Shown: positions 5,207-60,326, numbered from the stretch's first letter. The stretch is DNA of 64,000 nt from a bacterium (GCA_021813945.1 JAKAJD010000001.1:335072-399071), one strand, 5' to 3'. Translations and numbers: made by a program. Notes: generated by a model not told the origin, from the sequence alone.

Positions 5207-5276
5207 AAAAGGTCAGGCCCGCATAAGGGCAGGCCTTTGTCAAGATTAATCTAAGGTTAAGGCCTGCCCTTTACCC
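5207..5276. repeat. intergenic palindromic repeat element, copy A (13-nt inverted arms AAGGGCAGGCCTT / AAGGCCTGCCCTT)
   Basis: Seen in the sequence between tyrS and recG. The 3' arm and tail GGTTAAGGCCTGCCCTTTACCC are near-identical to copy G. Confidence 0.6.
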
Positions 5277-5330
5277 AGGGCCTTGCGCTAATTTGACTAA
5301 AGACAATAGTCGATAGACAATAGTCGCATT

Positions 5331-7376
5331 ATGGACCCACAAACCCGGATTGAAGTACTTCCTGGTGTAGGCGACTTTTACGCAAAAAGGCTTGCCAAAC
5401 TAGATATCAAAACAATAGTCGACCTTATCTACCATTTTCCATTCCGTTACGACGATTTCTCCCAAATCGAAAGCATTGCCCGCGCAAACACAAACGAAAA
5501 AATTACAATCCAAGGCACAATCTGGCAGATTAAAAACATAAGAACGCCCAGAGGCAAATTTCTAACAACCGCAACTGTGGCAGACGAATCGGGAACTATA
5601 GAGATAATTTGGTTTAATCAGCCTTATCTGACCAAAACTCTAAAAGCTGGAACACCCGTTTCTCTTTCGGGAAAACTAGACCCTAAATCGCCTCGCCCAA
5701 AATTGGTCTCACCTTCCTACGAAGTCTTAAGAAACCAGTCACCTGTCACGAGTCATCAGTCACCAAATACTCTTCACACCGGCAGACTTGTCCCGATTTA
5801 TCCGGAAACCGAAGGCGTAACGTCCAAATGGCTACGGGCAAAAATAGGTGCAATCCTGCCTTTTTATGTCAAAACTTTAGACGATTTTCTACCCAAGGAG
5901 ATTGCCTCAAGGCAAAATTTAGAAGATTTAGAAAGCTCTCTTACAAAAATTCATTTCCCAAAAACCTACGATGATGTCGAAGAAGCTAGAAAACGCCTTG
6001 GCTTTGACGAGCTTTTCTTAACACAACTTGCATCGGCAATTAGAAAACGCGAGTGGCTTTCCCAAAAAATAGCTCCACAAATTAAAATTTCCCAGTCTGA
6101 TCTTCAAAATTTTCAAAATAATTTGCCCTTCACCTTAACAGATGCCCAAAAAAAAGCTATAGAAGATATTGTCTCGGATTTGGAAAGAAAAACCCCTGCC
6201 AACCGGCTTTTGGAAGGCGACGTCGGCTCCGGCAAAACTGTAGTTGCGGCAGCAGCTGCCTTGGCAGCATACAAAAACAATTTTGAAACAATTCTCGCAG
6301 CACCAACAGAAATACTAGCGTTTCAGCACCAAAAAACACTCTCGGAAATCTTTGCGCCATACGGAATCCAAATCGGGATCTGGACAGGCAGCAAAAAACA
6401 AAAAGGTGATATAACCTGCGGAACCCACGCTCTTCTTTCAACCTTCAAAAGCCAAAAACAAATCGGACTGGTGATTGTAGACGAACAACACCGCTTTGGC
6501 GTGGCCCAAAGGGCCAAACTTTTTATGGATCAGAACTTAAAACTTTCTCCACACGTTTTAACCATGACTGCTACACCCATTCCCAGGACCCTCGCCTTAA
6601 CTCTTTATGGGGACCTCGATCTTTCCGTTTTGGACGAAATGCCTAAAGGCCGGCAAAAAATTGCCACATTTGTTGTCCCTAACTTCAAACGGCAAGGTGC
6701 TTACGGTTTTATTGAAAAACAGGTTCAAGAGGGCAGGCAAGCGTTTATCTTAACACCCTTTGTTGAACCTTCCGAAACCTTAACCAGCGTAAAGGCTGCA
6801 AAGGTTGAATTTGAAAACTTAAAAGGTAAATTTTCAAAAAAAGTAAAACTGGGACTTTTGCATGGCCGTCTTAAATCCAAAGAAAAAGAAGAGATAATTA
6901 CCAAATTTAAAAACAATAAAATAAACGTCTTGGTAACAACTCCTGTAGTTGAAGTCGGAATAGATGTACCAAACGCAACCGTAATGCTCATTGAATCAGC
7001 AGAACGTTTCGGGTTAGCCCAACTCCATCAGCTCCGTGGGCGTGTCGGCAGGGGAGAGCATAAATCGTATTGCTTCTTATTTTCTGATTCTAGATCCGAA
7101 AATTCTATCAAACGCCTAAAAAGCATGGAGAAAGTTCATATCGGCTTTGAGCTTGCCGAAATTGACCTTAAAATGCGCGGCCCCGGTGAAATCTTCGGTC
7201 TAAAACAATCCGGCTTTTTCAATTTTAAAATTGCCGACATCACCGACCAAAAATCTGTCGCCGCAGCCCAAAACGAAGCCAAAAAACTTCTCGACTCAGA
7301 TCCCAGACTCAAAAACCACCTTCACCTCAAACAAAAACTCGAATCCGTCTCAAGCGAATACTCCCAGCCAAACTAA
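5331..7376 (+). CDS. recG: ATP-dependent DNA helicase RecG
   Basis: N-terminal wedge/HhH region (LPGVGDFYAKRL). Walker A motif GDVGSGKT. DEQH box. Helicase C motifs (QLHQLRGRVGRG). Confidence 0.9.
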   Translation: MDPQTRIEVLPGVGDFYAKRLAKLDIKTIVDLIYHFPFRYDDFSQIESIARANTNEKITIQGTIWQIKNIRTPRGKFLTTATVADESGTIEIIWFNQPYLTKTLKAGTPVSLSGKLDPKSPRPKLVSPSYEVLRNQSPVTSHQSPNTLHTGRLVPIYPETEGVTSKWLRAKIGAILPFYVKTLDDFLPKEIASRQNLEDLESSLTKIHFPKTYDDVEEARKRLGFDELFLTQLASAIRKREWLSQKIAPQIKISQSDLQNFQNNLPFTLTDAQKKAIEDIVSDLERKTPANRLLEGDVGSGKTVVAAAAALAAYKNNFETILAAPTEILAFQHQKTLSEIFAPYGIQIGIWTGSKKQKGDITCGTHALLSTFKSQKQIGLVIVDEQHRFGVAQRAKLFMDQNLKLSPHVLTMTATPIPRTLALTLYGDLDLSVLDEMPKGRQKIATFVVPNFKRQGAYGFIEKQVQEGRQAFILTPFVEPSETLTSVKAAKVEFENLKGKFSKKVKLGLLHGRLKSKEKEEIITKFKNNKINVLVTTPVVEVGIDVPNATVMLIESAERFGLAQLHQLRGRVGRGEHKSYCFLFSDSRSENSIKRLKSMEKVHIGFELAEIDLKMRGPGEIFGLKQSGFFNFKIADITDQKSVAAAQNEAKKLLDSDPRLKNHLHLKQKLESVSSEYSQPN

Positions 7377-7382
7377 GACATG

Positions 7383-7410
7383 TTGACTAAAAATTCTCAT
7401 TTGATATAAT
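7383..7410 (+). promoter_or_regulatory. sigma70-like promoter (TTGACT, 16-nt spacer, TATAAT) upstream of rpmF-nusB
   Basis: Exact -35 (TTGACT at 7383-7388) and -10 (TATAAT at 7405-7410) consensus hexamers about 60 nt upstream of the rpmF start codon. Confidence 0.5.
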
Positions 7411-7469
7411 CCCCAAAAGGCTAATTTAGCCACTAGTAACTGGCTGGTGGCAACTAGTAAACTAAAACT

Positions 7470-7664
7470 ATGACACCGTTACCAAAAAAGAGGCATGCTA
7501 AAGCAAGGTCTAAAGTCAGAAGAGCTTCAATAAAGCTCTCTATTCCAAACCTTGTTAAGTGCCCTAATTGTCAAAGCCTTAAATATCCGCACCAAGCATG
7601 CAAAAAGTGTGGATATTACAAGGAAAGCCCAAAAAGCAAGGTAGAAGAGATCAAAAAGGCTTAG
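7470..7664 (+). CDS. rpmF: 50S ribosomal protein L32
   Basis: Basic N-terminus PKKRHAKARSKVRR. CxxC...CxxC zinc-ribbon arrangement typical of bL32. Confidence 0.8.
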   Translation: MTPLPKKRHAKARSKVRRASIKLSIPNLVKCPNCQSLKYPHQACKKCGYYKESPKSKVEEIKKA

Positions 7665-7671
7665 GGCAAAA

Positions 7672-8043
7672 ATGAAACGTAAAGACGATCCTAGGCATAC
7701 ACAAAGGGTCGAGGCCATGAAAGCGCTTTTTGAAACAAGCTTCAGGGCCCAAAACCCAATTGCCAAAGATTCAGTTGCATCTGAAGTATTTAAAAGCAAG
7801 CGGAAAATCGACGCCTTAATAAAAAAGAATGCACCCGCTTGGCCTATATCGCAGATTGCACCAATAGATCTGGCACTTTTGAGATTAGCAATTTGGGAGC
7901 TAATACTTAAAAAAAAGCCTGAACCTTACAAGGTAATTGTAGACGAAGCAGTTGAGATAGCTAAAGAATACGGGTCTGAATCATCGCCTGCATTTATAAA
8001 CGGCGTTTTGGGATCGATAATTTCGAAGAAATTACATGACTAA
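7672..8043 (+). CDS. nusB: transcription antitermination factor NusB
   Basis: 123-aa all-helical protein. R..AR..ALQ-type N-terminus and the conserved ALLRLAIWEL and DEAVEIAKEYG segments. Confidence 0.85.
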   Translation: MKRKDDPRHTQRVEAMKALFETSFRAQNPIAKDSVASEVFKSKRKIDALIKKNAPAWPISQIAPIDLALLRLAIWELILKKKPEPYKVIVDEAVEIAKEYGSESSPAFINGVLGSIISKKLHD

Positions 8044-8088
8044 ATCAGGCAGTTGACGATTTACTATTAACTAATTAGGATAACTGTA

Positions 8089-8340
8089 ATGACAGACACA
8101 GAAATTTTAGAAGATATCAAAAAAATAATCTCAAAAGACTTCGGCGTTCCCGCGGAAGATATCGAAGAGGACTCCAATCTGGATGAAGACCTAAACATTA
8201 CAGATTTGGAAATAGAAGATCTGGCGGAAAAACTTAGTCTAAAATACGACATCCAAATCCCTCAGGAAAAAATATCTTCATTTGTTAAGGTTTCGGATAT
8301 AGTCAACTATCTTTATGAAAACGTCGACACCACGCTCTAA
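8089..8340 (+). CDS. acyl carrier protein-like small acidic protein; the phosphopantetheine-site Ser is replaced by Asp
   Basis: 83-aa acidic four-helix pattern that aligns to ACP. The EDLGADSLD motif corresponds to EDLNITDLE here. It sits immediately upstream of rnc and overlaps its start, matching the conserved acpP-rnc synteny. Confidence 0.55.
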   Translation: MTDTEILEDIKKIISKDFGVPAEDIEEDSNLDEDLNITDLEIEDLAEKLSLKYDIQIPQEKISSFVKVSDIVNYLYENVDTTL

Positions 8341-9079
8341 AATTTCGCCACAACAATTAAATACTGGATCGGATTTTTCAAGTCTTGAGCAAAAAATTGG
8401 GATTAAATTTTCCGATAAAAACCTACTTAAAAACGCTTTTATTCACAGGTCTTACTTAAACGAGCACAAAAATTACAGGGGACAATCAAATGAACGGCTG
8501 GAATTTCTAGGGGATTCAGTGCTATCCATTATTGTTTCATCGCATCTTTTTAAAAATCTTCCCCAAAGTCCCGAAGGTAAACTCACTCAGTTAAGAGCTG
8601 CTTTAGTGCGTACCGAAACCTTGGCAAAACTCGCGCAAAAACTTTCACTTGGGCAATATCTCTATCTTTCAAAAGGTGAGGAAGACTCGGGCGGCAGAAA
8701 CAACAACTCAATTCTGGCAAACACTTTTGAAGCCCTAACAGGAGCAATTTACCTGGATCAGGGCATGGAGTCAGCAAGAGATTTTCTTGCTGAAAACGTT
8801 CTTTCTAACTGGAAACAGTTGGCAGAAACTGCAGTTTCCGACAATAAATCAAAGCTTCAAGAGGTTTTGCAAAAACTCTACCACCAGTCGCCAAGTTATA
8901 AGATAATAAACACATGGGGCCCAGATCACGATCGCAGATTTGAAATGGGCGTCTACCTAGGCCAAGAATGCTTTGGAAAAGGAGAGGGTAAAAATAAACA
9001 AGAGGCAGCCCAAAACGCTGCCAAAAACGCCCTTTCAGAGTTGGATTTGAATAAACTCCAAAAAACACTTGAACTTTGA
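8315..9079 (+). CDS. rnc: ribonuclease III
   Basis: RNase III signature ERLEFLGDSVL. C-terminal dsRBD (KQEAAQNAAKNAL). Confidence 0.92.
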   Translation: MKTSTPRSKISPQQLNTGSDFSSLEQKIGIKFSDKNLLKNAFIHRSYLNEHKNYRGQSNERLEFLGDSVLSIIVSSHLFKNLPQSPEGKLTQLRAALVRTETLAKLAQKLSLGQYLYLSKGEEDSGGRNNNSILANTFEALTGAIYLDQGMESARDFLAENVLSNWKQLAETAVSDNKSKLQEVLQKLYHQSPSYKIINTWGPDHDRRFEMGVYLGQECFGKGEGKNKQEAAQNAAKNALSELDLNKLQKTLEL

Positions 9080-9143
9080 AGTGAAAATTTGAGATAATAC
9101 CAAAATCGTCGATAGTCAAAATTCTATAGACGACAATAAAAAT

Positions 9144-9368: not shown

Positions 9369-9369
9369 A

Positions 9370-9603: not shown

Positions 9604-10265
9604 ACATTGCATTAATTACTCTTTTCCCTGAAGTATTTACTCCCATCACTAAAGCAAGCATCCTCAAAAGAGCCCAAAACAAAAGCCTTGTTAAATTTAA
9701 GTTTGTAAATCCCAGAGATTTTGCTAAAGACAAAAGGAAAACTGTTGACGATAAACCATACGGCGGAGGAGCAGGTATGGTTATGAAAGTAGATGTACTG
9801 CATAAAGCAATCTCTTCGCTTAAACCAAAGCCTTATTTAGTTCTACTTTCGGCATCTGGTGCAAAATTCACCCAAAAAAAGGCAAGGGCTTTCTCTACGA
9901 AGGAAAATCTGGCCTTAATTTGCGGCCATTATGAAGGCGTTGATGCTAGAGTCGAGAATTATGTCGATGAAGTTGTCTCAATAGGCGATTATGTCCTAAC
10001 AGGTGGAGAAATACCGGCAATGGTCATTTTGGATTCAATAGTCCGCCTTATTCCAGGCGTAATAAATTCAAAATCACCACAAGACGAATCCTTCGAAAAA
10101 AATCTGCTTGAATATCCTCAATATACAAGGCCTGAAGTTTATCAAAAAAAATCTGTACCTAATATTCTTTTAACCGGAAATCACCAGCAAATTGCTGAAT
10201 GGCGCAAAGATCAATCAGAAAAACGTACAAAAAAGTACAGACCTGACCTCGCCAAATCTAGTTAA
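9600..10265 (+). CDS. trmD: tRNA (guanine37-N1)-methyltransferase TrmD
   Basis: GTG start that overlaps the upstream stop codon. N-terminus I.LITLFPEVF and SPOUT motifs (DDKPYGGGAGMVM, VLLSASG, GHYEGVD). rimM is absent between the KH gene and trmD. Confidence 0.9.
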   Translation: MNIALITLFPEVFTPITKASILKRAQNKSLVKFKFVNPRDFAKDKRKTVDDKPYGGGAGMVMKVDVLHKAISSLKPKPYLVLLSASGAKFTQKKARAFSTKENLALICGHYEGVDARVENYVDEVVSIGDYVLTGGEIPAMVILDSIVRLIPGVINSKSPQDESFEKNLLEYPQYTRPEVYQKKSVPNILLTGNHQQIAEWRKDQSEKRTKKYRPDLAKSS

Positions 10266-11068: not shown

Positions 11069-11637
11069 GAATTGTCTCCTCCCGGCGGTTTGGCAGCAGA
11101 ACTTCCATTAAGTTGGCTAGATATACTAAAGGTATAGACACCGTCTTGGTCTGAGCTTAAAGAATCTATATTTACATTTGAAATTATTTTGGAGCCTGAG
11201 TCAGAAGCAAGAGACGATATAAATCCGGCAATGTCAGCGGATGTTTTTGCTTTTCCAGAAAACGTTGCCTTGGCTCCTGTAAATTTTATATCCGTGAAAT
11301 AAACATTCTGGGGAACCAATTGAGCAAACTGAGAAAAAACGTTAACCTGGTCAGATCTGCCACTCAGTACCTTTTCAGCAACAGATGCTTTGTCCTTTGT
11401 CACAACCACCAGTGCCTCGGTATCTTTAAGCGAATTTATCTCGGCAGTACTTGATTCAATTTCGTTCTCTATCTTTGCTCTACCTGAAGCATACCTTGTA
11501 AACATCACAAGCGTTACCACCCCGAAGGCAGCAACCAAAACCAAAACAAGAGCCGAAAACAATGTGAGCTTCTTGCGAATACCCTCAGCCGCTTCCGATC
11601 CCTTATCTTCAACCGGCAATAAATTTATATCAGGCAT
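11065..11637 (-). CDS. pilN: type IV pilus assembly protein PilN
   Basis: N-terminal INLLP motif followed by a single TM helix. Sits directly downstream of pilM. Confidence 0.7.
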   Translation of the reverse strand: MPDINLLPVEDKGSEAAEGIRKKLTLFSALVLVLVAAFGVVTLVMFTRYASGRAKIENEIESSTAEINSLKDTEALVVVTKDKASVAEKVLSGRSDQVNVFSQFAQLVPQNVYFTDIKFTGAKATFSGKAKTSADIAGFISSLASDSGSKIISNVNIDSLSSDQDGVYTFSISSQLNGSSAAKPPGGDNS

Positions 11638-11675
11638 CTTAATTTAGCGTAACAAAAGCTACATTTCAAAACAAC

Positions 11676-14590: not shown

Positions 14591-15043
14591 TTACGGCCCC
14601 TGCCACAAAGAAAGGATCGTATGACTGGTAACAGTTTGGGTACCACCAGAATCAATCCACTGCACAGTTGCCGTTATAAGCTTTGTGTTTAAATCAGTAC
14701 CGTCAGCAATTGCAAGCTGTCTTGTGAAATTCATACCACCCTCAACTAGTGTTTGAGGGCAACTTCCGCCATCTGTTAAAGTCCAAGAACTGGGATCTGA
14801 ACTTGGCATATTTATAATGTAGCATGAGTTATTTGAAAGGGCACCATAGCCTTGTCTATCCCTAAAAACTCTAATTTCCTCAATATATTCCTCAGCAAGC
14901 TTAGTAGCCTGCGCGTTACTTCTGGCAGTACGCGCAGTTTTATTCGAAACTAAGCTTGCAGAAATAATGGCAACCGCTAAAATTGCCGCAATTCCAACGC
15001 TAACTATGACCTCAATTAAAGATTGACCATCAACCTGCTTCAT
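14591..15043 (-). CDS. type IV pilin-like protein (minor pilin or pseudopilin)
   Basis: MKQVDG/QSLIEVIVSVGIAAIL prepilin-type leader with Glu at position +5. Confidence 0.65.
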   Translation of the reverse strand: MKQVDGQSLIEVIVSVGIAAILAVAIISASLVSNKTARTARSNAQATKLAEEYIEEIRVFRDRQGYGALSNNSCYIINMPSSDPSSWTLTDGGSCPQTLVEGGMNFTRQLAIADGTDLNTKLITATVQWIDSGGTQTVTSHTILSLWQGP

Positions 15044-22046: not shown

Positions 22047-22130
22047 TTTTTTATTCTAAACTATCGCTAGTCCATAAAAAAGCACGGCAACCCATACGAC
22101 GTCACCGTGCTTTTTAATAATTCTCAGAGC

Positions 22131-32805: not shown

Positions 32806-33876
32806 GTGAGCAACAAAAAAGCAAGACTAATTCTAGAAGACGGCACAATTATTGAAGGCCAGGCGTTCGGGGCATCAACCTCAAAAGCCGGTGAAGTTGT
32901 TTTTGCAACAGGCATGACAGGCTACGACCTTTCTTTAACCGACCCTTCCTATGCCGGGCAAATTCTGACATTTACTTATCCTCTCATCGGGAATTGGGGA
33001 GTGCCGCCAAAAGAATTTTGGGAATCGGAAAAAATCCACGTTGAAGGTGTCGTCATTTCAGACCTGACCACAAATCCCAACCACTGGCAAAACGAAAAGT
33101 CGTTAAACGATTGGCTCGTGGAACAAAACGTTCCGGCAATTGTCGGAATCGACACTAGAGCTCTCACTCAAAAACTACGCGAAAAAGGTGTGATGCTAGG
33201 AAAAATCTTGGTAGGAAATCAGGATGTCGACTTCATCGATCCAAATGAAAAAAATTTGGTTGCAGAAGTTTCGATCGCAGAAGTCAAAATTCACAAATCG
33301 CCAATATTAAATCATAAATCAGAAATCCGAATAGGGCTACTCAACTGCGGCGCAAAGAAAAACATTACACGTTGTCTTACAAATCGGGGAGCCACAGTTT
33401 ATGAACTTCCCTGGAATTTCGACCCGTTTGCCAGTAAACTGCCGCTCGACGGACTGGTTATCTCCAATGGTCCTGGCGATCCAAAAATGGCTAAAGAAAG
33501 CATCAATATAATAAAGAAGGCTCTTTCCAAAAAACTGCCAACATTCGGAATATGTCTTGGCAACCAGCTTTTGGCCCTCGCCGCCGGCGCCAACACTTAC
33601 AAATTAAAATTTGGTCATCGGGCCCAAAACCAACCAACAATCGAAGTCGGCACAAAACGCTGCTACATCACAACCCAAAATCATGGCTTTGCAGTTGATG
33701 ACAAAAAGCTTCCGGACGGTTTCAAAAAATGGTTCACAAACGCCAATGACGGCTCAAACGAGGGGATCATACACTCAAAACTCCCTTTTATGAGCGTCCA
33801 GTTTCACCCCGAAAGTTTCCCTGGCCCGACAGATACCGAATTTTTATTCGATAAATTTATGGAGAATTTTAAATGA
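32806..33876 (+). CDS. carA: carbamoyl-phosphate synthase small (glutaminase) subunit
   Basis: CarA N-terminal domain (LILEDGTIIEGQAFGA). Class I GATase Cys in the GICLGNQ motif. Confidence 0.9.
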   Translation: MSNKKARLILEDGTIIEGQAFGASTSKAGEVVFATGMTGYDLSLTDPSYAGQILTFTYPLIGNWGVPPKEFWESEKIHVEGVVISDLTTNPNHWQNEKSLNDWLVEQNVPAIVGIDTRALTQKLREKGVMLGKILVGNQDVDFIDPNEKNLVAEVSIAEVKIHKSPILNHKSEIRIGLLNCGAKKNITRCLTNRGATVYELPWNFDPFASKLPLDGLVISNGPGDPKMAKESINIIKKALSKKLPTFGICLGNQLLALAAGANTYKLKFGHRAQNQPTIEVGTKRCYITTQNHGFAVDDKKLPDGFKKWFTNANDGSNEGIIHSKLPFMSVQFHPESFPGPTDTEFLFDKFMENFK

Positions 33877-44858: not shown

Positions 44859-45266
44859 ATGAAAGAAGCCCCTGGTAATCTAAATCTAGATCCGGAAGAA
44901 CAAGCCGTAATAGAAAGCGCAAACTTGGCAATAGCTACAGCCAAAAAAAGGAAACGCTTGGATCTGGTCTATATGGTAAAAGGCCAAAAATACTCAACTA
45001 TAAAAATTGCCTTGCGTCGGAAATTTACACATCTTACAACAGCATTTGCCCAAACTGAATATGGTCCGCAAGAAACTCCACTTGTTCCGCTGGAAATAAA
45101 AGTTGATGCAGACAATTTAACAGACGATGTTTTAATCGATTCAACTATAGCTTTTTGCGAAAGTAATTTTCCTAACCTTAACAGGGCAACAGTAAATATT
45201 TTTGGAAGCCTTCGAGAATATATCAATAAAAGACCCTCAGTAAGTTTTGTAACGATTTCCAGATAA
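44859..45266 (+). CDS. hypothetical protein
   Basis: 135-aa ORF with no recognisable motif. Sits where frr would follow pyrH, but the sequence is not RRF-like. Confidence 0.35.
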   Translation: MKEAPGNLNLDPEEQAVIESANLAIATAKKRKRLDLVYMVKGQKYSTIKIALRRKFTHLTTAFAQTEYGPQETPLVPLEIKVDADNLTDDVLIDSTIAFCESNFPNLNRATVNIFGSLREYINKRPSVSFVTISR

Positions 45267-45318
45267 AGGGCAGGTCTTTTTCTTGCATTTTAGCCATGGT
45301 TAAGGCCTGCCCTTAACC
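45265..45318. repeat. intergenic palindromic repeat element, copy B
   Basis: AAAGGGCAGGTCTTT, 18-nt spacer, GGTTAAGGCCTGCCCTTAACC. Begins 1 nt before the stop of ORF 44859-45266. Confidence 0.6.
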
Positions 45319-46131
45319 TATTTTTAGCCTCGTTTTAGCCTCGCCGAGCCTCTAATTGCCCTTTAAAAGGCTTTTTATAAACCTAGTCGATAAATGGGCC
45401 AGAGTATATAGATCAATTTCCATCAATCCGGACCAAAAATTAACTATTTGTTATAAACAGGGGATAAGTGGATCGAAATTGGTCCGCAACAAAAAAAGAA
45501 AGAAAACTGAAAAAAGCGGGAAAACACGAAAAATATAAAAACGAGAAAGTCCATAAATTATGATAAGTTAAAAAGCTTCGCCCCCTCTCTCAGCCTCAGC
45601 TCGCGTCGCAAAAGTATCATTGTGCGACGTGGAAGCTAATAGGAAATAAGGCCCTACCATAGGGAATATAAGGGACAAATTTTTTGAAGTGATTTAAAAC
45701 TGTTTATTCTATTTTTGGTCACTTTTCGCCTCATTTTAGCCCTTCCCCGAAAAAGGCAAAAATGCCACTTTCTAATGCCTTTAGCAGTTAACTTGTCAAC
45801 ATGCCAAAAAATATGTAAGAATCTCTTACGTAGAGTAGCAGAGTCTTATAGTCCTCCGTCAGGATCGCCTTAATATATTATTTATATCTTTAGTTGCGGG
45901 AATTTTTTTCATCATCTAACTTTTTCACGGTTCCTTTTTTCACGATTTCACAAACTATAACTATATCACACTATATCACCTGTTTCCCTTCCCCACCTCC
46001 TCTATCCCCGGTTTTTATAATTTTTCCTGAAGCTAATTTGAAGCTAAAATTTTCTCTATTTTTGGAGGAAAATAACTAAAATATACCACTTCTCTACAAA
46101 ATACTATAGGTTAATAATCGTTCACTTATTC

Positions 46132-46177
46132 AAGGTCAGGTCTTAGCCCTAGATTAACCCAACAAAGGCCTGACCTT
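46132..46177. repeat. intergenic palindromic repeat element, copy C (divergent)
   Basis: AAGGTCAGG, 28-nt spacer, CCTGACCTT. Sits just after the stop of the gene at 46194-47024. Confidence 0.45.
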
Positions 46178-46193: not shown

Positions 46194-47024
46194 TTACCCT
46201 CCCCATCTGGACGAAATCATAATTATCACAGCTACAACTAAAGCAACCGATAAGTGCTCCCACACAATCCTTGGCCTCAGCTTTTCGTGAAACACAAACT
46301 GCCCCAGCCCCAAAAGAACATACATGACAGTGATAACGACAAGAGAAGCGTTTATTGGTGCCAGCGGCCAAAGCGAAAAAACTGTAGCGACTTGGGCAGT
46401 CACAAGAGCAAAAACGATTGTATGCCAAAACACTTTTCTGGTAATGTATTCCTCAAGTCCAAAAGACCACAAGTTAACTAAATATATGGGGCCACAAACT
46501 GCCGCAACCCCCAACACTGTTAAAAATATTGAACCGTGAAGTGAAAACAGGACGTTTAGCAAAAAAAACGCAGCCACCAGAGAAAACAAATGTCCAACCG
46601 CATGGGCTGCCCTAAGAAGCGCAATCGTGCGGATTGCGGCGACATTATAGATATTTGAAGTCAACATTAAAAGGTAAACCGAGATTCCAAATGCCAGGGC
46701 AAACGGCAAGCGCGTAATCCACCTAACCGGAAGTAAAAAGTAAAAAAGAGTCGCGCCCATTACAAAATAAACCGGCAGCAAAAGAAGCAAAAAATATTTG
46801 ATTCCCGAAAGCTCTCCCCAAAGCGAAAAAACAGCCAAAAGCAAGGTCGACAAGGCTAAAAAGGCCATCACTTGATACCTAAGTGATTCGGAAACGGTTT
46901 GTGTGGCAATCAAAATTGCAGTTAGAAAAAACGACATCAAAATGAACCTTTGACGTTTGGTTATTTCGTACGACGTTATTTTCGGAAAAAATTTAAATGG
47001 ATTTGAAAAAATTTTTAGCTTCAT
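46194..47024 (-). CDS. hypothetical polytopic membrane protein
   Basis: 276 aa with about eight hydrophobic helices. No motif recognised. Confidence 0.55.
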   Translation of the reverse strand: MKLKIFSNPFKFFPKITSYEITKRQRFILMSFFLTAILIATQTVSESLRYQVMAFLALSTLLLAVFSLWGELSGIKYFLLLLLPVYFVMGATLFYFLLPVRWITRLPFALAFGISVYLLMLTSNIYNVAAIRTIALLRAAHAVGHLFSLVAAFFLLNVLFSLHGSIFLTVLGVAAVCGPIYLVNLWSFGLEEYITRKVFWHTIVFALVTAQVATVFSLWPLAPINASLVVITVMYVLLGLGQFVFHEKLRPRIVWEHLSVALVVAVIIMISSRWGG

Positions 47025-47050: not shown

Positions 47051-47101
47051 AAAGGCCAGGCCTTTACCCTAGACAATACGTAGTTAAGGCCTGGCCTTAA
47101 C
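47051..47101. repeat. intergenic palindromic repeat element, copy D (the best-conserved copy)
   Basis: AAAGGCCAGGCCTTT, 17-nt spacer, GTTAAGGCCTGGCCTTAAC. The ruvC stop codon lies inside the second palindrome. Confidence 0.65.
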
Positions 47102-47683
47102 ATTCGGCTTCGGCTTCGGCTTTGACTTCCCTACCTTTGTATTTCGACTTATCGAAACCTTTTTTACGTTTGATACATCTGTTAACTGTGTAACCTTTAT
47201 GTAGTGGCATATTGCAACTGCCAGCGCGTCTGCCGCATCGTCTATATAACCATTTTTCGGTTTTGCCAATTTCCTTTTACCTAAATACTTCATCACGTAC
47301 TTTTGGATTTCTTTTTTATCCGCCTTCCCGGAACCTGTTATTGTGTGCTTTACATGAAGACCTTGGTATTCAAATATGGGTATCCTATAGGATGCGACAG
47401 TCGAGAGTACTACTCCCCTTGCCTGCCCAACAGTCATTGCCGTTCTGGAATTTACTCCAAAGAACAATTGTTCAATAGAAACGCAATCGGGTTTATATTG
47501 TTTCAGTAGCTTGTGAAGGTCTTTTTGAATACTAAAAAGCCTCATAGGCATTTCCATCTCCTTTGGAGTGACAATACAACCGTATTCTATTAACTGAAAT
47601 TGCTTTCCAGAGCTTTCAACGAGGGTCTCAACAAGCCCATAGCCTGTTGTTGCAGTACCTGGATCTATGCCTAAAATCAACAT
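47084..47683 (-). CDS. ruvC: Holliday junction resolvase RuvC with a lysine/proline-rich C-terminal tail
   Basis: N-terminus MLILGIDPGTATTGYGLVE. RNase H-like catalytic acidic residues. C-terminal tail KSKPKPKPNVKARP. Confidence 0.9.
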   Translation of the reverse strand: MLILGIDPGTATTGYGLVETLVESSGKQFQLIEYGCIVTPKEMEMPMRLFSIQKDLHKLLKQYKPDCVSIEQLFFGVNSRTAMTVGQARGVVLSTVASYRIPIFEYQGLHVKHTITGSGKADKKEIQKYVMKYLGKRKLAKPKNGYIDDAADALAVAICHYIKVTQLTDVSNVKKVSISRNTKVGKSKPKPKPNVKARP

Positions 47684-47686
47684 GGA

Positions 47687-48421
47687 TTAATCCCTAACTC
47701 TGGGTCCGTCGTATTCGACTTCGTTTTCGTCCAAACGTCTGACCGGTTTTTCCCTCAGTGACTCTTCAACTACGTGTGCAACCAACCCTGGTACTCTGGC
47801 AATTATAAAAATACCTTTACCTACTTTAGGATTAAATCCCATCTCGAGAAGTAACGCCCCGAAAATTCCGTCTATATTTAGCGGCAATTTTTTGACACCT
47901 TTGGAAACTTCTGCTTCAACTTCCAGCGCAAACTTTACATACTTTCCGTAGAATCCAAGCTTCTTGGCAATCTCCAAAAGCTTTTGCGTTCTCGGATCAA
48001 CCGTATAAAGCCTGTGGCCAAAACCGCTGACCCGTTCTCCCCTTTTTGCAAAATCGGCAACCATTTCCGCAGCGCCAACACTCTGCCACTTTTTAAAATT
48101 CTCCATCGTCTGCTGTATTGCACCGCCATGGAATTCACCAAACGCCAAAACTCCGGCTGCAACAGCTGCCTGTACCGGCGACCCAGCCGAATAAACGTTT
48201 CTGGCCGCAACCACAGAAGAAGGTTCAACTCCATGATCAATAGCAATCGTAAATATTGCATCAAGCATTCTTTCCGAATTTTTGTCCGGCATCTTACCCA
48301 TCAAAATTAAATAGATTGTTCTTGTGAAAGATGGAGATTCTGCAAGTTTGGTCAAATCGTAACCATAAACATACGGCTTGCCGTTGTGATGTGTCGAAAT
48401 TGAAGTTTTATACTTTGCCAT
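47687..48421 (-). CDS. truncated citrate-synthase-family protein (candidate citryl-CoA lyase, or the ATP-citrate lyase C-terminal module)
   Basis: Citrate synthase signature GFGHRLYTVDPRT. Only 244 aa, which corresponds to the C-terminal catalytic half of citrate synthase. Confidence 0.7.
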   Translation of the reverse strand: MAKYKTSISTHHNGKPYVYGYDLTKLAESPSFTRTIYLILMGKMPDKNSERMLDAIFTIAIDHGVEPSSVVAARNVYSAGSPVQAAVAAGVLAFGEFHGGAIQQTMENFKKWQSVGAAEMVADFAKRGERVSGFGHRLYTVDPRTQKLLEIAKKLGFYGKYVKFALEVEAEVSKGVKKLPLNIDGIFGALLLEMGFNPKVGKGIFIIARVPGLVAHVVEESLREKPVRRLDENEVEYDGPRVRD

Positions 48422-48438
48422 TATCTAAATTATTATAC

Positions 48439-49332
48439 CTACTTAATAACTTTCTTCAAAATTCCAGGAATATCTTCAAAGTTTTCGGCCAAAATTGCGC
48501 CGGATTTTTTGATTGATGCCACTTTTTGCTCCATCGTTGAATCCAGCCCCACAATTGCACCGGCGTGGCCTAATGCAGTATCCTTTGGCAGTTTTTCCGC
48601 AAACTTTCCTGCCAAAAATATGATCAGGGGTTTTGTGAATTTTTTCTCCGCGACTAATTTAGCCGCCTCTATTTCCGCATTTCCACCAACCTCTCCAAAC
48701 ATCACGGCAACCTTTGTTTGAGGATCCCCTTCAAACATTTCCAAAACATCTACAAACGTTGTCCCGACAAGCAAATCACCACCAATTCCTACAACTGTTG
48801 ATTGCCCAAAACCGGCATTTGTAATCATGGAACCCAACTCCGAACACATTCCGCCGGATTTAGAAATCACTCCAACCGGACCCTTAGAAAAGGTAATCTT
48901 GGCATTCGGCCCGCCGATAGAACCGACCTTTCCTTCGCTCGGCGAAATTGCCCCAACAGAGTTTGGTCCTAAAACCCTAACCCCTTTTTCTTTTGCTCGA
49001 TACAATATTCGGCATGTATCTAAAACCGGAACCCTTTCCGCAAAAATATGTATTAGTGGAATCCCGGCATCAATTGCTTCCATCGCCGCATCCAATGTTA
49101 AAAGTGGTGGCACGTTGACCATTGCACAATCAACCGGACCAAGATCGGAAACCAACTCTTTGACCGAATTAAAAACCGGCAAATCCAACGCTTCCTGTCC
49201 ACCCTTTCCCGGCGTTACTCCCCCCACAACTTTCATCCCGTAATCTAAAAGATCGGCACATGCCGAAAGCCCCGATTTCCCGGTAATTCCCTGAATTAAA
49301 ACTTTAGTTTCGCTATCAACTAGAATTGCCAT
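48439..49332 (-). CDS. succinyl-CoA synthetase alpha-subunit-like protein (CoA-binding and CoA-ligase domains; phosphohistidine loop present)
   Basis: CoA-binding Rossmann N-terminus (KVLIQGITGKSG). GHAGAIVG phosphohistidine motif. 297 aa. Confidence 0.85.
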   Translation of the reverse strand: MAILVDSETKVLIQGITGKSGLSACADLLDYGMKVVGGVTPGKGGQEALDLPVFNSVKELVSDLGPVDCAMVNVPPLLTLDAAMEAIDAGIPLIHIFAERVPVLDTCRILYRAKEKGVRVLGPNSVGAISPSEGKVGSIGGPNAKITFSKGPVGVISKSGGMCSELGSMITNAGFGQSTVVGIGGDLLVGTTFVDVLEMFEGDPQTKVAVMFGEVGGNAEIEAAKLVAEKKFTKPLIIFLAGKFAEKLPKDTALGHAGAIVGLDSTMEQKVASIKKSGAILAENFEDIPGILKKVIK

Positions 49333-49340
49333 AATCTTTC

Positions 49341-49392
49341 GTTAAGGCCTGGCCCTAAAGTTTGATTTTCCCAGCCTAAAGGCCAGGCCTTT
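49341..49392. repeat. intergenic palindromic repeat element, copy E (inverted orientation)
   Basis: GTTAAGGCCTGGCCCTAA, 19-nt spacer, AAAGGCCAGGCCTTT. Located between the sucC-like stop and the sucD-like start. Confidence 0.65.
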
Positions 49393-50578
49393 CTCTTTTG
49401 AATTCTTCCGAAAGCTCAACCATTTTCTTGCATGCCACAGATATCGGTGTTTCCGGTCCAAACAAATGGATATCAAATCCTTCTTTTTTGGCAAAACGCT
49501 CAAGCATTTCGTATGCTTCTTTTTGCCTGGGCCCGCCGCGGCGAATAACGATCGGGTAATTCGGTTTTGGTTTTACTTTCAAAAGCCCGTCACAAAATCC
49601 GGCTAACGTTGCGTAAATATCCGTAAAATTGGCAACGGCTCCTGCGACCAAACAACCTGCCAAACCTTCTTTTCCTAATGTAATTTCGGTTAACTTTTCA
49701 ACTTTTTCCTGCGGCGGATTCCCGGAATATTCCGTGTAATTTGAAGGTTTGCCACCGACTTCTGAAAGCGCATCCATCACCAAAAGCGACGCTCCTCCGC
49801 CGGATGCCAAAACCGCGATATCTCCACCAAATTCTATAAAGGTGGAACCTGCACTTCCGCGATAATCTTCCTCGTCGATTTTTCTGGCCGCCAGCTCTCT
49901 TTCTGTCGGTACTGCTCCAGCAGAACCTTTTTGTAAAACATCCAAATCACGATGTCGCGCCAGGCCCGCATCATCCAAAATAATCTTTGCATCAACTGCT
50001 AAATAATCATCTCCGACCTTCGCAATCGGGTTCACCTCAACTAAACGACAATCGTATCTAACAAACGCATCCCAAAGCCTCACCAAGAAATCAACAAGTT
50101 TTTCGTCGCCCAAATTTTTAAAAAGTTCTTTTTTGTTTGGCCCCGAAAACGGATCAATGTCGAACCGCAAAATTTCATCCGGTGAATTCTTCTTAACCTC
50201 TTCTATATCCATTCCCCCGCTTTTGGAAAATAAAAGAAACGGAATTTTTAAAGTTGTGTCGTAAGTAATAGAAGCATAATATTCGCCTTCAATTTGCGCC
50301 TTTTCCGCAAGTGATATAAACCGCACTTGCTCATCAGCAAAAGTTGACCCAAACATTCCTTTGCAAAAATCCAGAAGCTGTTTTTCGTTTGTACAGATTT
50401 TTATTCCCCCACCTTTTCCCCGTTTTCCGGAAAGCACCTGCACTTTGGCAACTATCGGAAATCTCAACCTTTGTCTCGCTTGTTCGACTTCTTCCATGTT
50501 GGAGCAAGCCACAAAAAAAGGGCTTTCAATTCCCACCTTGGAAAGCAAATTGTGCCCTTCAAATTCGTAGAGTTTCAC
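49376..50578 (-). CDS. succinyl-CoA synthetase beta-subunit-like ATP-grasp protein
   Basis: ATP-grasp motifs KVQVLSGKRGKGGGIKI and EVNPI. C-terminal CoA-ligase domain (GGDIAVLASGGGASLLVMDAL). 400 aa. Confidence 0.85.
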   Translation of the reverse strand: MKLYEFEGHNLLSKVGIESPFFVACSNMEEVEQARQRLRFPIVAKVQVLSGKRGKGGGIKICTNEKQLLDFCKGMFGSTFADEQVRFISLAEKAQIEGEYYASITYDTTLKIPFLLFSKSGGMDIEEVKKNSPDEILRFDIDPFSGPNKKELFKNLGDEKLVDFLVRLWDAFVRYDCRLVEVNPIAKVGDDYLAVDAKIILDDAGLARHRDLDVLQKGSAGAVPTERELAARKIDEEDYRGSAGSTFIEFGGDIAVLASGGGASLLVMDALSEVGGKPSNYTEYSGNPPQEKVEKLTEITLGKEGLAGCLVAGAVANFTDIYATLAGFCDGLLKVKPKPNYPIVIRRGGPRQKEAYEMLERFAKKEGFDIHLFGPETPISVACKKMVELSEEFKRERPGL

Positions 50579-54134: not shown

Positions 54135-54140
54135 AGAAAC

Positions 54141-55690: not shown

Positions 55691-55738
55691 ATTATTTTTT
55701 TACTTTGCTGCCCGACTTCTTATTAAATAAGCAAGAAG

Positions 55739-55876: not shown

Positions 55877-56000
55877 AAAATTGTTAATTTTATATCAGAG
55901 GAGCGCCATTGGCATGACTTGAAAAGGTGCCAAGGCGACCTGCTGACATAGAATAATTACCTCTAAACCATTTTATCAGGCCAGATCAACAGCTACAACA

Positions 56001-57701: not shown

Positions 57702-57732
57702 AGGCAGTTTTGTTAGATGTCAGGTCCCGGCA

Positions 57733-57785
57733 AAAGGCCAGGCCTTTACGCTTTGACTTTCGATGGTTAAGGCCTAGCCTTAACC
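57733..57785. repeat. intergenic palindromic repeat element, copy F
   Basis: AAAGGCCAGGCCTTT, 17-nt spacer, GGTTAAGGCCTAGCCTTAACC. Located between the rluA-family gene stop and the kef start. Confidence 0.65.
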
Positions 57786-58594
57786 TAAGCCTGATTCCTT
57801 TCGTCAGTCGTTAGAAAAAGCATCGCATTTTTGAGATCGTTTGGCAAGTCGCACTCGAACGTTAAGACTTTCTTGGACCTTGGGCTGGAAAAGTAAATCT
57901 TTTTTGCGTGCAAATATAGCCTTGGACACCACACTTGATCAAACTTTAAAAGCTTTGACGGAGTGTAAATTAAATCGGAAACAACCGGATGGCCGATTGA
58001 TTTTAAATGTACTCTGATTTGATGAGTTCTTCCTGTTTTTGGGAAAACCGAAAGCAGTGTGTAATCCTGTCCATGCTGGTCAAGATATCTAACACGAGAT
58101 CTGTTATATCCTTTTTCAACAATTATATTTTCAAAATTTGAAATTTGAAATTTGAAATTTGAAATTCTTTCATAATCGGTAACAGCCTCCCTACCTCCCT
58201 CTTGTCGATTTTTGAGATTACCAAATTTGCCAAACTTGCCAATTCTAGCGATATTACTTGCAATTTCTCCACTGTCATCCTTTACCAATCCATGAACCAA
58301 AGCTATATATTCTTTTTTAACTCTCCTCTCTTTAAACTCGCCCTGCAAAAATTCAAAAGTCTTCTGGTTTTTAGCAACAACCAAAACTCCGGATGTCTCC
58401 CTATCCAATCGATGTACGATTCCAGCCCTTTCCCCTATTCCCAAATCGCCGTTGGCTAATTTGAAATAATCGGACAACTGATCCTGTAGAGTTTCCTCTC
58501 TGGAAGTTTCAGATTTGTTGACCGTCAACCCTGAAGGTTTGTCCAAAACTAAAAAATCTTTGTCTTCAAAAATAATATTAAGATTAGGCTTCAT
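57785..58594 (-). CDS. RluA-family pseudouridine synthase
   Basis: Catalytic motif HRLDRETSGVLVVAKN. Family motifs DKDFLVLDKPSGL and HQIRVHL. Confidence 0.85.
   Translation of the reverse strand: MKPNLNIIFEDKDFLVLDKPSGLTVNKSETSREETLQDQLSDYFKLANGDLGIGERAGIVHRLDRETSGVLVVAKNQKTFEFLQGEFKERRVKKEYIALVHGLVKDDSGEIASNIARIGKFGKFGNLKNRQEGGREAVTDYERISNFKFQISNFENIIVEKGYNRSRVRYLDQHGQDYTLLSVFPKTGRTHQIRVHLKSIGHPVVSDLIYTPSKLLKFDQVWCPRLYLHAKKIYFSSPRSKKVLTFECDLPNDLKNAMLFLTTDERNQA
58133..58165. repeat. heptanucleotide tandem repeat (AAATTTG)x4.7 inside the pseudouridine synthase CDS
   Basis: Read directly from the sequence. Encodes ...RISNFKFQISNFE... on the minus strand. Confidence 0.8.
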
Positions 58595-58988
58595 CCTTAT
58601 TTGCGAAAATTAAATTATAAAAAATTAAAATTGCGCCAACTGTAATTGCTGTATCTGCCAAATTGAAACTTGGAAAAACTTTAAAATCAACAAAATCCCG
58701 AACGCAACCTACAGTAAACCTATCTATTAAATTTGAAAATCCTCCAGAAAAAACCAATGAAAGCGCAACCAAATTCAATCTGTTTTTTTCTTTCAAAAAA
58801 AGCCACAAGACCACTATCAAAACTAAAATAGAAATTACAGCAAAATTACCAGAAATACCAAAAGCCCCGCCCCTATTGCAAGAAATCTCAAAAAATTTAA
58901 CTGCAATAAATTTAGTTAGCTGGTCTAAAACTAAAACAGAGAAAATTAAAAGACCTAATTGAAGATTATTTTTTGTTTTCAACTTCAC
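58584..58988 (-). CDS. lspA: lipoprotein signal peptidase (signal peptidase II)
   Basis: Four TM helices. Conserved motifs NRGGAFGI, FSNLIDR and FNLADTAIT. Confidence 0.85.
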   Translation of the reverse strand: MKLKTKNNLQLGLLIFSVLVLDQLTKFIAVKFFEISCNRGGAFGISGNFAVISILVLIVVLWLFLKEKNRLNLVALSLVFSGGFSNLIDRFTVGCVRDFVDFKVFPSFNLADTAITVGAILIFYNLIFANKDEA

Positions 58989-59316
58989 TCTCGCACTTCA
59001 AGCAATAGACAGCTTGAGGTTTAACTTCTAGTCTTCCTGCATCAATCGACTTGCCGCAGCGTTCACACAAACCATATGTTCCTTTTTTAATCTTTTTGAG
59101 AGCAGACTCAATTTCTTTAAGATCAGCCTTTAGTCTATCTTCTAAAACTACTGCCCGTTCATGCCCAGATAAAACTGCAGCATCTGTTCCGGGTTCGACA
59201 ATAAGCGATCTGTCCTCTGAAGAAAATGGGTCTTCTTCTTTTACCCGACCGAGCTTTTTTAAAATTAAATTCCTTTGTTTTTCAACCTTACCTCGAAATT
59301 TCGCGACATCTATCAT
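58966..59316 (-). CDS. DksA/TraR family C4-type zinc-finger protein
   Basis: C-terminal CERCGKSI...CLKCESE four-Cys finger, preceded by a coiled-coil region. Confidence 0.75.
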   Translation of the reverse strand: MIDVAKFRGKVEKQRNLILKKLGRVKEEDPFSSEDRSLIVEPGTDAAVLSGHERAVVLEDRLKADLKEIESALKKIKKGTYGLCERCGKSIDAGRLEVKPQAVYCLKCESEVENKK

Positions 59317-60320
59317 TTTCTAACTCCTAACGCGTGAGCAAAATCCAAAAGTCCTCCGGAAATCTCACGACTTACTAATTTTACTAAAAACCATACTCCT
59401 TTTACCAACCTGAAGGGAAAAAGCAGTATTAGCTTGGCAATTCCATCTGCTTCCGTGACACTAAAAATTACGCGTTTTGTCTTAAAGATAAAAAGTAAAA
59501 CCCATCCAAAAAAACTTTTTAAATCGTTCCAAACTCTGCGCTTTGCCAAAATATACCAAGCCGGAACAATGTAGATTAACGCTAAAATCCCCCACGAAAG
59601 TTGATATGAAATCTGAAAATTAAAAGGTCTTCTAATTGGGAAAAATCCCAAAGCCAGATCGGTAAGAACTACCGAAGTAATTGCAAAACAGGCAAAAAAG
59701 CCCCGATGCCGTTTTCTCTTTTCAAGCCTTTTTATAATCCAGAAAACTGCAAAAAAGTAAAGGGCAAGAAACAACCCGTTCTTGCCAACCGTAAACCCTT
59801 TTGCCAGTGACAAAAAAAGATAAGCTATCGCATAGTAAAAGCTTAATGCAAATATCATAGGAGCAGCAGCTAAATCAAAAACAAACCAAAAACTTTCTCG
59901 TCTGCCCTTCATGTAAAACCAAACTGCAAAAACCCCTCCCAAAAATGCCAGATACCAATCAAAACCGGAAAAAACGTTAAAGAAAAAAAGTCTGGTAAAC
60001 GACCATTTGTAAAAACCAGATCTAACGAAAAAATCGCCTATTCTTCCTAAAAATAATGCGCCTACTAAAAAAAGTAAGAGCACATCGAAAATGTCTTGTG
60101 AATCTACAAGCTCATAGCGGCTTGACCTCCAAAAAAGAAAGGCTCCAAAAATAAAGCCAAGAATAATTCCAAGCGGGCTTGCTAAGATTTCCAAAAGCTT
60201 GGGGGAAAGGTGCAGCATAGGAGCCTTATTATAGAAAAGATAGACTCCCAAATTCAAACAGTATTTTTCAACAAAGGTCATGCCTGTCTCGAGCACAGAA
60301 CGTAGGTTAAGGCCTACCAT
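59313..60320 (-). CDS. probable prolipoprotein diacylglyceryl transferase (Lgt-like polytopic membrane protein); true start probably at an internal Met
   Basis: Multi-TM protein with an Lgt-like GRIGDFF motif. Sits next to lspA and the DksA-like gene. The first 13 codons are encoded by the palindromic repeat copy G. Confidence 0.5.
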   Translation of the reverse strand: MVGLNLRSVLETGMTFVEKYCLNLGVYLFYNKAPMLHLSPKLLEILASPLGIILGFIFGAFLFWRSSRYELVDSQDIFDVLLLFLVGALFLGRIGDFFVRSGFYKWSFTRLFFFNVFSGFDWYLAFLGGVFAVWFYMKGRRESFWFVFDLAAAPMIFALSFYYAIAYLFLSLAKGFTVGKNGLFLALYFFAVFWIIKRLEKRKRHRGFFACFAITSVVLTDLALGFFPIRRPFNFQISYQLSWGILALIYIVPAWYILAKRRVWNDLKSFFGWVLLFIFKTKRVIFSVTEADGIAKLILLFPFRLVKGVWFLVKLVSREISGGLLDFAHALGVRK

Positions 60321-60326
60321 TTACCC
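60305..60326. repeat. partial copy (G) of the palindromic repeat
   Basis: GGTTAAGGCCTACCATTTACCC, two mismatches from the matching arm of copy A. Overlaps the annotated 5' end of the Lgt-like ORF. Confidence 0.45.

Follow-up and report, generated by a model that had tools for sequence, protein, structure and literature searches.

The stretch of DNA analysed here, a 64-kb window along whose whole length all coordinates are counted, matches a 976-kb ENA metagenome contig at 100% identity, as it does five further independent assemblies (ENA/Logan). Because the closest named matches of the RuvC and LepA proteins of this genome are from Candidatus Curtissbacteria, we place the host, with a genome of about 1 Mb, in the Patescibacteria/Microgenomates, near Ca. 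Curtissbacteria. Genomes of Patescibacteria, about 1 Mb in size, have a reputation for being streamlined, with little mobile DNA. A complete type IV pilus set is encoded in the window, which also carries several copies of a short palindromic repeat, the subject of this study; the genes between neighbouring copies are ordinary housekeeping genes.

Reading of the seven sites, together with a fuzzy arm search, shows that the repeat is laid out as a 13-nt arm, AAGGNCWGGYCTT, a spacer of 20–23 nt (rather than the 17–28 nt given in a sequence-only reading of the same stretch) and a reverse-complementary arm, AAGGCCWGN'CCTT. The near-symmetry of the element means that copies of the window lineage cannot be assigned an orientation, and the earlier statement that the element occurs in both orientations has no useful meaning. 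The copies are as follows, with scores in bits from the covariance model described below.

5209-5271: copy 1, in the tyrS-recG spacer; arms 5225-5237 and 5259-5271 (AAGGGCAGGCCTT / AAGGCCTGCCCTT), 13 of 13 positions paired, 21-nt loop; an extra partial third arm at 5209-5221 (AAGGTCAGGCCCG) precedes the hairpin; 55.7 bits; folding energy -14.4 (DNA) and -25.5 kcal/mol (RNA)
45266-45314: copy 2, overlapping the stop codon (45264-45266) of a 135-aa gene; arms 45266-45278 and 45302-45314, one T.G pair; 52.5 bits
46132-46177: copy 3, 16 nt downstream of the stop of a DUF5656-like gene (46194-47024, minus strand); arms 46132-46144 and 46165-46177, T-A variant, one T.G pair; 49.2 bits
47052-47098: copy 4, filling the spacer between ruvC and the downstream gene; arms 47052-47064 and 47086-47098, 13 of 13 paired; 55.6 bits
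49344-49391: copy 5, intra-operonic, between the sucC-like and sucD-like genes, as first described; arms 49344-49356 and 49379-49391; 46.7 bits
57734-57781: copy 6, between an rluA-family gene and a Na+/H+ exchanger gene; arms 57734-57746 and 57769-57781, one C.A mismatch on the plus strand; 45.8 bits
60274-60321: copy 7, a decayed remnant in the divergent spacer upstream of an Lgt-like gene; arms 60274-60286 and 60309-60321 (AAGGTCATGCCTG ... AAGGCCTACCATT)

Six of the seven loci recognised at the outset therefore hold intact copies, against a chance expectation of about zero. The seventh gives no covariance-model match and no hairpin fold (z about 0); we nevertheless take it to be a real copy that has decayed, since in a relative (L050, 4223-4267) the syntenic locus has an intact hairpin at the orthologous place. 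All copies in the window are intergenic or overlap stop codons, and none is internal to a gene. A weak model match in trmD (9877-9918) was rejected as an in-gene copy, since TrmD aligns to solved structures without an insertion there. The contig has one further copy 8 kb beyond the left edge of the window, giving eight copies in about 81 kb, and an additional, slightly decayed copy is found inside lepA of the same genome.

The repeat stands out clearly from background. The 15-mer AAAGGCCWGGCCTTT occurs exactly three times in the window and never in shuffled sequence, AAAGGCCAGGCCTTT has three exact occurrences (0 expected), TTAAGGCCWGGCCTTAA has four at up to one mismatch (0.01 expected), and the 11-nt core AGGCCWGGCCT has 11 at up to one mismatch (0.8 expected). 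A generic inverted-repeat finder placed the arm pairs of copies 1–4 among its top matches. A covariance model built from 82 non-identical family members has exactly six matches in the window, at 40–56 bits, the next best scoring no higher than 10 bits. The only solo near-match to an arm in the window is at 32855, with one mismatch.

To this model we owe the definition of the conserved unit. The stem, 5'-AAGG-N-C-W-GGCCTT / AAGGCC-W-G-N'-CCTT-3', is a near-invariant 13-bp helix, whereas the loop is lineage-specific. Pairing holds for 99% of stem positions among the 82 members; at pair 5/9', 39 members have U-A, 29 C-G and 14 G-C, and at the central pair 7/7', 70 have A-U and 11 U-A. Members of the family were sought in species-representative genomes with a degenerate two-arm pattern that left exactly these two positions free, so the complementarity between the arms is not an artefact of the search. 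With T-A at 5/9', the commonest variant, each arm loses its self-complementarity and the pairing between arms is kept; arm self-complementarity is confined to the C-G variant, which dominates within the window. The conserved unit is therefore a single 13-bp hairpin and not, as had been proposed, two self-complementary 13- to 15-mers. Folding agrees: the long hairpin is the minimum-energy structure of all six copies as RNA (-19 to -28 kcal/mol) and of five of the six as DNA. Of the two alternative folds suggested earlier, the long stem-loop stands, and the pair of small hairpins, seen only for copy 6 and only as DNA, was rejected as a conserved feature. A recurrent T.G at pair 10/4' marks a subfamily.

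The stem is also sharply bounded, with Watson-Crick pairing just outside and just inside it in 10 and 11 of 95 hairpins (about 29 expected). Loop lengths peak at 20–23 nt, with minor classes of 10 and 16 nt, so that whole elements span about 42–56 nt and mostly 46–49 nt. Arms rarely occur alone: we counted 131 hairpins and roughly two dozen unpaired arms (exact or with one mismatch), some of which adjoin a decayed partner or sit at a locus edge. In the window lineage each arm lies inside a longer palindrome, roughly CTAGGTT-arm-AACCTAG, and a full copy there is a doublet of palindromic units of about 27 nt, a REPIN-like layout (REPINs being paired repetitive extragenic palindromic, or REP, sequences).

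Comparison with relatives shows how the copies come and go. Four syntenic loci, L108 (WY5.bin133), L109, L110 and L111, were obtained through their RuvC homologs and scanned with the covariance model. In L108 the copy after ruvC and the one separating the sucC-like from the sucD-like gene are both present, copies 2 and 3 are missing, and an additional copy lies at 14770. L109, L110 and L111, with the same gene order, have no copy in 11.6–20 kb, and a search of these three for a substitute hairpin family found none; the RuvC of L109 is 92% and its DUF5656-like protein 86% identical to those of the window. In alignments with L108, L110 and L111, copy 2 is a clean insertion of about 48 nt at the end of a conserved non-coding block, and copy 3 is absent from the orthologous site in L108–L111. 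The variation in copy number among relatives that the sequence-only reading had proposed to look for is thus present.

Copies also recur at unrelated places. Copy 1, loop included, is 87–91% identical to copies in L009, L023 and L013, and copy 3, likewise with its loop, is about 90% identical to one at L030 5810-5858; for copies 1 and 3 taken together, with L079 included, identity is 88–91%. None of these five loci has a homolog of the genes that flank the window copies, and they are hence non-orthologous; orthologous genes of the same relative are only about 75% identical at the nucleotide level. At orthologous positions, copy 4 has a counterpart in L108 (10611-10663) and none in L109–L111, copy 5 one in L108 (7765-7816) with two compensatory double substitutions and a largely different loop, and copy 6 one in L050 (6803-6851) with a compensatory C-G to T-A change. 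The hairpins have been copied to new places, are gained and lost between close relatives, and can persist for long with their pairing kept.

Copies 2 and 3 enclose an AT-rich (35% GC) stretch of about 815 nt (45315-46131) with no open reading frame (ORF) of 90 residues or more. Its counterparts in L108 (11523-12396), L109 (10175-10985), L110 (11425-12251) and L111 (11483-12293) are conserved in position and in sequence blocks: CCTATAGTAT, GGTGATATAGTGTGATATAGTTATAG, CGTGAAAA, a hairpin GCGTCGCACAATGATACTTTTGCGACGC, TTATCCCCT and GGCTAAAA..GGCTAAAAATAG. The stretch has no Rfam match at E ≤ 1. The GC skew keeps its sign there, which makes an oriC improbable; the stretch may have a regulatory role or encode a large non-coding RNA that has yet to be described. 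Directly 3' of the DUF5656-like gene, L108 carries about nine tandem units of the 7-nt repeat GTGATAA (about 11523-11600), and the window has two such units at the same place, flanking copy 3.

Several copies have altered the ends of genes. Copy 4 supplies the last codons and the stop of RuvC (...KARP*), where the L108 protein ends ...KKGRP*, and copy 5 supplies the ...RPGL* of the SucC-like protein, which in L108 continues through the entire hairpin. The RuvC and SucC-like tails of relatives that lack the element are unrelated, and the comparison indicates that hairpin sequence has taken the place of the native C-terminus and stop at these gene ends. The earlier placing of three stop codons inside the arms has to be relaxed: the ruvC stop (47084-47086) does overlap the edge of an arm, the sucC-like stop (49376-49378) abuts one, and the rluA-family stop (57785-57787) lies 4 nt beyond, in the flanking AACC.

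RuvC of the window (47084-47683, minus strand) and its homologs in L108–L111 share a C-terminal extension of about 35 residues, rich in Lys, Ser and Val, that is absent from canonical RuvC of about 165 residues; the NCBIfam match stops at residue 164, and the extension is older than the hairpin insertion. The operon that holds copy 5 (47687-50578, minus strand) encodes a SucC-like ATP-grasp/citrate-binding protein, a SucD-like CoA-ligase alpha subunit and a short protein of the citrate-synthase fold (Pfam). NCBIfam scores fall under the succinyl-CoA synthetase cut-offs. The arrangement resembles ATP-citrate lyase or citryl-CoA synthetase/lyase, which would be an unusual metabolism for a Patescibacteria genome of about 1 Mb.

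At the remnant, the annotation itself is affected. The longest Lgt-like ORF (59313-60320, minus strand, 335 aa; L114) starts inside the decayed repeat, and the gene calls of public assemblies use the same start. Alignment with the WY5.bin133 ortholog points to ATG 60218, codon 35, as the probable true start, in agreement with the suspicion first raised from the sequence. With the start placed there, the remnant lies upstream of lgt.

Many hairpins in relatives lie deep within long ORFs, namely those of UvrC, AspRS, PriA, RecF, Obg, SufC, RecJ, the CCA-adding enzyme and FolD (NCBIfam assignments). The NCBIfam profile alignments of these carriers break at the hairpin, and the SufC copy is a clean 19-residue insertion relative to solved SufC structures; compared with solved structures, too, the LepA copy falls between the G domain and domain II. 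The arms are free of stop codons in all six frames and read as KARP/KAWP, RPGL or GQAL/GLAF, all frames being used.

The genome of the window offers its own example. LepA (P0123, on the 976-kb contig; L115 1779-3569) contains LRPGLNKDESGQKAWPL, whose coding DNA (L115 2328-2379) is a hairpin with slight decay; the peptide lies in the linker from the G domain to domain II, which other LepA sequences lack or have in a short form. In the AlphaFold model, residues 182–197 follow the last helix of the G domain and precede the first strand of domain II, have no secondary structure and a predicted local distance difference test score (pLDDT) below 50; the segment is thus predicted to be disordered. 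A synonymous change in this copy breaks one stem pair, and the constraint on the arms is therefore not absolute. In an alignment of 31 LepA homologs (P0121–P0221), insertions concentrate at two hot spots: the first follows AIRL.Y in the G domain, and the second separates RIPxP from ALIFDS. These places hold nothing, the family studied here, or peptides characteristic of other palindromic repeats. The other families seen there, apparently palindromic too, number at least three (SSSFIVHSK..EPLTINH; RHSE.SEES..QDD / VIPANAGI; NTPGV..TPGV). Because several repeat families occupy them, in-frame palindromic insertions look general for the genomes of Curtissbacteria relatives.

The family extends well beyond this lineage. 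The pattern scan of species-representative genomes matched at least 101 loci, and the multi-copy carriers are mostly metagenome-assembled genomes (MAGs) of the candidate phyla radiation (CPR), labelled Saccharibacteria, Gottesman-, Collier- or Curtissbacteria, Microgenomates or 'Patescibacteria group'. Single isolated matches in other phyla resemble chance matches or direct repeats. The search for further copies beyond the window, on which the idea of a dispersed repeat depended, was thus positive on the contig, in lepA and across genomes. The same stem recurs in many CPR MAGs with lineage-specific loops. Density is about one per 11 kb, and copy number is estimated at about 85 per Mb. Within some genomes (JACREM, CAIOTC, CAZRER) the loops are near-identical, for example AAAACGGCTTGGCC.CG..AG.G in JACREM/JBBTTM and TAATGCCCAATTTCCC in CAIOTC, which reads as the signature of copying bursts. 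No Rfam family was found over the window at the gathering threshold, and the segment 45200-46250, with copies 2 and 3 inside it, gave no match at E ≤ 1. A full-text literature search found nothing on palindromic or MITE-like elements (MITE, miniature inverted-repeat transposable element) in Patescibacteria. Phages as vectors were considered and dropped, as the two-arm pattern had no match in IMG/VR viral contigs.

Three carrier MAGs are labelled 'Gammaproteobacteria' or 'Bdellovibrionales': CAYTEJ (L009–L092), CAZEDQ (L017–L083) and CAZRER (L020/L026/L048). The hairpins of CAYTEJ and CAZEDQ, the two titled 'Gammaproteobacteria', belong to the same loop subfamily as the window copies, and those of CAZRER have the same stem with another loop; only CAYTEJ (L047) also gives a short nucleotide match to the window. 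The taxonomic labels of all three are probably wrong, and CAYTEJ and CAZEDQ would appear to be relatives of the window organism.

Taken together, these results make it probable that the sites belong to a family of short, non-autonomous mobile palindromic repeats of Patescibacteria, similar to REP/REPIN sequences or to Rickettsia palindromic elements (RPEs). REP/REPIN sequences are mobilised by REP-associated tyrosine (HUH) transposases (RAYTs), and IS200/IS605 insertion sequences leave no target-site duplications. By analogy with both systems, the form in which copies spread would be a single-stranded DNA hairpin, and an enzyme acting in trans, from a gene elsewhere in the genome, would recognise it. 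Insertions are tolerated just after stop codons, where they often rewrite the last codons and the stop, and in frame within disordered linkers or loops of housekeeping proteins. Any effects on transcripts, such as 3'-end protection or weak termination, would then probably be a by-product and not the reason why the elements exist.

Several observations weigh against this interpretation, beginning with the fact that the mechanism is purely one that we infer. Pfam lists for the window and its 18-kb extensions (about 100 kb of contig) contain no transposase or RAYT-like gene; they comprise housekeeping genes, the type IV pilus cluster and an Xer-like integrase that is also present in relatives without hairpins. 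A tblastn search of about 990 kb of collected DNA with an approximate IS200 TnpA query, a weak test, gave no match, and the only recurrent gene families near copies are pilins and housekeeping genes. There is no excess of 2–6-nt direct repeats at any offset relative to shuffled pairings, although single flanking bases are identical more often (45 of 95). The lack of target-site duplications fails to support a classical MITE mechanism; it is compatible with mobilisation of single-stranded hairpins, because IS200/IS605 elements leave none either. A stem common to several Patescibacteria classes is unusual for a REP family. Copies 4–7 are kept at orthologous positions in a relative of about 75% nucleotide identity, with compensatory changes, as selection for a host function would also predict. 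The position of copies relative to stop codons, considered next, likewise fits a 3'-end function as well as it fits the purging of insertions that disrupt promoters. Both the stop bias and the retained orthologous copies are, on the other hand, also expected for a REPIN-like replicator that needs its hairpin and whose promoter insertions are purged.

That the hairpins, placed after genes, serve the host primarily as RNA elements, whether by factor-independent termination or by stabilising mRNA 3' ends, with copy 5 in the sucC-like/sucD-like operon as an attenuator or stabiliser, seems unlikely to us. Their stability as RNA and the retention of copies 4–7 would suit such a role. So would placement in tandem spacers: of 44 copies there, 32 have the upstream stop as the nearer gene boundary, with median distances of 23 nt to that stop and 73.5 nt to the next start (p=0.004). 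Copies inside genes are no obstacle to terminator activity, as translating ribosomes suppress intragenic hairpins. However, placement at gene ends, once taken as a hint of termination, loses its force when the available spacers are counted. Simple ORF-based gene calls on 580 kb of DNA from carriers give 42 hairpins in tandem, 12 in convergent and 8 in divergent spacers, for 332, 62 and 67 such spacers available, with no significant departure, and summed spacer lengths are in similar proportion to the counts. The divergent, promoter-containing spacers hold 8–9 copies, and one such placement, upstream of lgt, is verified by orthology (copy 7 and L050 4223).

Of the properties of an intrinsic terminator, the hairpins have the GC-rich stem and lack the U-tract: base counts of the flanks, which read WAC..., show no T-run on either side, and copies occur in divergent spacers and within an operon. 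Nor does the transcribed strand leave a mark. G.U and A.C mismatches relative to it number about 6 and 4, which is uninformative, and the asymmetric loops of other lineages are oriented with and against transcription in 5 and 4 cases, with no consistent link to GC skew. Without a U-tract or a strand bias, a dedicated terminator role is not supported. A terminator, moreover, needs no fixed stem sequence, yet this stem is invariant across classes, and close relatives with the same operons lack both the hairpins and any substitute. A canonical A-tract/stem/T-tract terminator, bidirectional in appearance, lies between two minus-strand genes at 22074-22118 (ATAAAAAAGCACGG / CCGTGCTTTTTAAT); the genome therefore also uses ordinary A/T-tract hairpins, which speaks against the repeat being its terminator.

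We think it improbable, too, that the arms are in the first place double-stranded recognition sites for a conserved Patescibacteria protein, with the hairpin secondary, whether for a DNA-uptake receptor, a nucleoid or Xer-type protein, or methylation at GGCC, CCWGG or AGGCCT. It is true that the stem is conserved across CPR classes in sequence and not merely in pairing, that the arm of the C-G variant is a perfect palindrome containing all three of these sites, and that arms of the window lineage lie in longer palindromes. The pilus set of the window would suit uptake, and the DNA uptake sequences (DUS) of Neisseria often form inverted pairs after genes. Set against this, arms almost never stand singly, their density is far under that of DUS or of the uptake signal sequences (USS) of Haemophilus, close relatives have none of the sites, and the commonest, T-A, variant breaks the symmetry of the arm while keeping the pairing between arms. 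Restriction-modification avoidance was examined and rejected for want of a strong signal: the depletion of GGCC is mild (observed/expected 0.71, much like CTAG), and AGGCCT outside the repeats is as frequent as expected. These values, and the near-constant pairing of the arms, also dispose of a randomly distributed restriction-related palindrome that occurs inside genes as well, the alternative by which the repeat family was to have been refuted. Chance similarity or an assembly artefact, conceivable in that the window derives from metagenome assemblies, is given practically no weight, with the identical sequence in six independent ENA/Logan assemblies, a shuffle expectation of about zero and the family present in dozens of independent MAGs.

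Returning to mobile hairpins, a wider picture can be drawn, which we offer tentatively and would rather doubt than assert. The invariant 13-bp stem may be the recognition element of a putative enzyme, RAYT-like HUH or new, that is conserved across Patescibacteria, and the hairpins a long-lived population of within-genome replicators common to several CPR classes. Together with the three or more other palindromic families in LepA, they might then be a general source of lineage-specific protein insertions in the CPR. If true, an RPE-like phenomenon would be phylum-wide in 'streamlined' genomes. For an uncultured phylum, the repeat offers a tractable marker with which to follow genome dynamics and strain variation, and it explains some lineage-specific protein insertions and altered C-termini. 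It also causes annotation errors, as at the Lgt-like start and the RuvC and SucC-like C-termini, and it points to a putative mobilising or binding protein conserved across CPR classes.

The first comparison with REP/BIME- or MITE-like dispersed repeats has held up, in that the element is multi-copy here and in many Patescibacteria and its content varies between syntenic relatives. Like the REP/REPIN-RAYT systems of E. coli and Pseudomonas fluorescens, it is a short, GC-rich, multi-copy palindrome in an AT-richer genome, found mostly just after stops and inside operons, and its inverted near-palindromic units form one long hairpin. Compensatory stem changes, the absence of target-site duplications and a copy content that varies between relatives are likewise common to both. 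REP sequences are short imperfect palindromes of 20–40 nt in many copies, to which the 13-nt arms and 27-nt units correspond, and the inverted doublet forming one hairpin is seen here in the 131 pairs, in covariation and in the minimum-energy fold. The 5' GT[AG]G foot of REPs is absent, the -1 base being A/C/T and the +1 base T/A/G, and REPs are restricted to extragenic DNA whereas this family has in-frame copies in ten proteins. REP/REPIN sequences have a cognate RAYT gene in their genome, typically with REPs on its flanks; the sampled DNA yields none (about 100 kb of this contig by Pfam, 990 kb by the weak IS200 tblastn). Copy density is lower than for REP (85 per Mb being an estimate), and a REP family is normally confined to one species or genus.

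MITEs (Correia/NEMIS, ERIC, RUP, Coxiella QMITE) are also non-autonomous, with terminal inverted repeats; their copies occasionally lie within genes, and they can change the 3' termini of genes and transcripts. They usually exceed 100 bp and have a target-site duplication and the ends of a resident insertion sequence, whereas here there is no duplication and no parent insertion sequence was found in the sampled DNA. Neisseria DUS and Haemophilus USS share with this family a fixed short sequence that occurs as inverted hairpin pairs after genes and occasionally in coding sequence, in hosts that carry type IV pili; DUS and USS are mostly single, at about one per kb, and conserve their sequence and not pairing, while the arms studied here are paired, ten times rarer and vary in a compensatory manner.

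RPEs, as described in PMC10969869 (summarising Ogata et al. 2000), are similarly palindromic, reside in a reduced genome, enter unrelated housekeeping genes in frame, adding a peptide at permissive places, and are also intergenic, with some positions conserved among species. They measure about 100–150 bp and form about ten Rickettsia-specific families with a conserved peptide, whereas the present element measures 42–56 nt in an unrelated phylum and conserves only its 13-nt arms, read in all frames (RPGL/KARP/GQAL...); the two are set apart here by description and not by their sequences. Because the likeness to REP fails on the GTAG head and the extragenic limit, that to RPE on size and host and that to MITEs on the duplication, we consider these sites a new family of short interspersed palindromic repeats. 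It is most like REPINs in architecture and placement and most like RPEs in its in-frame colonisation of housekeeping genes, and it has two unusual traits: a stem invariant across CPR classes, and frequent in-frame copies in essential genes of genomes of about 1 Mb.

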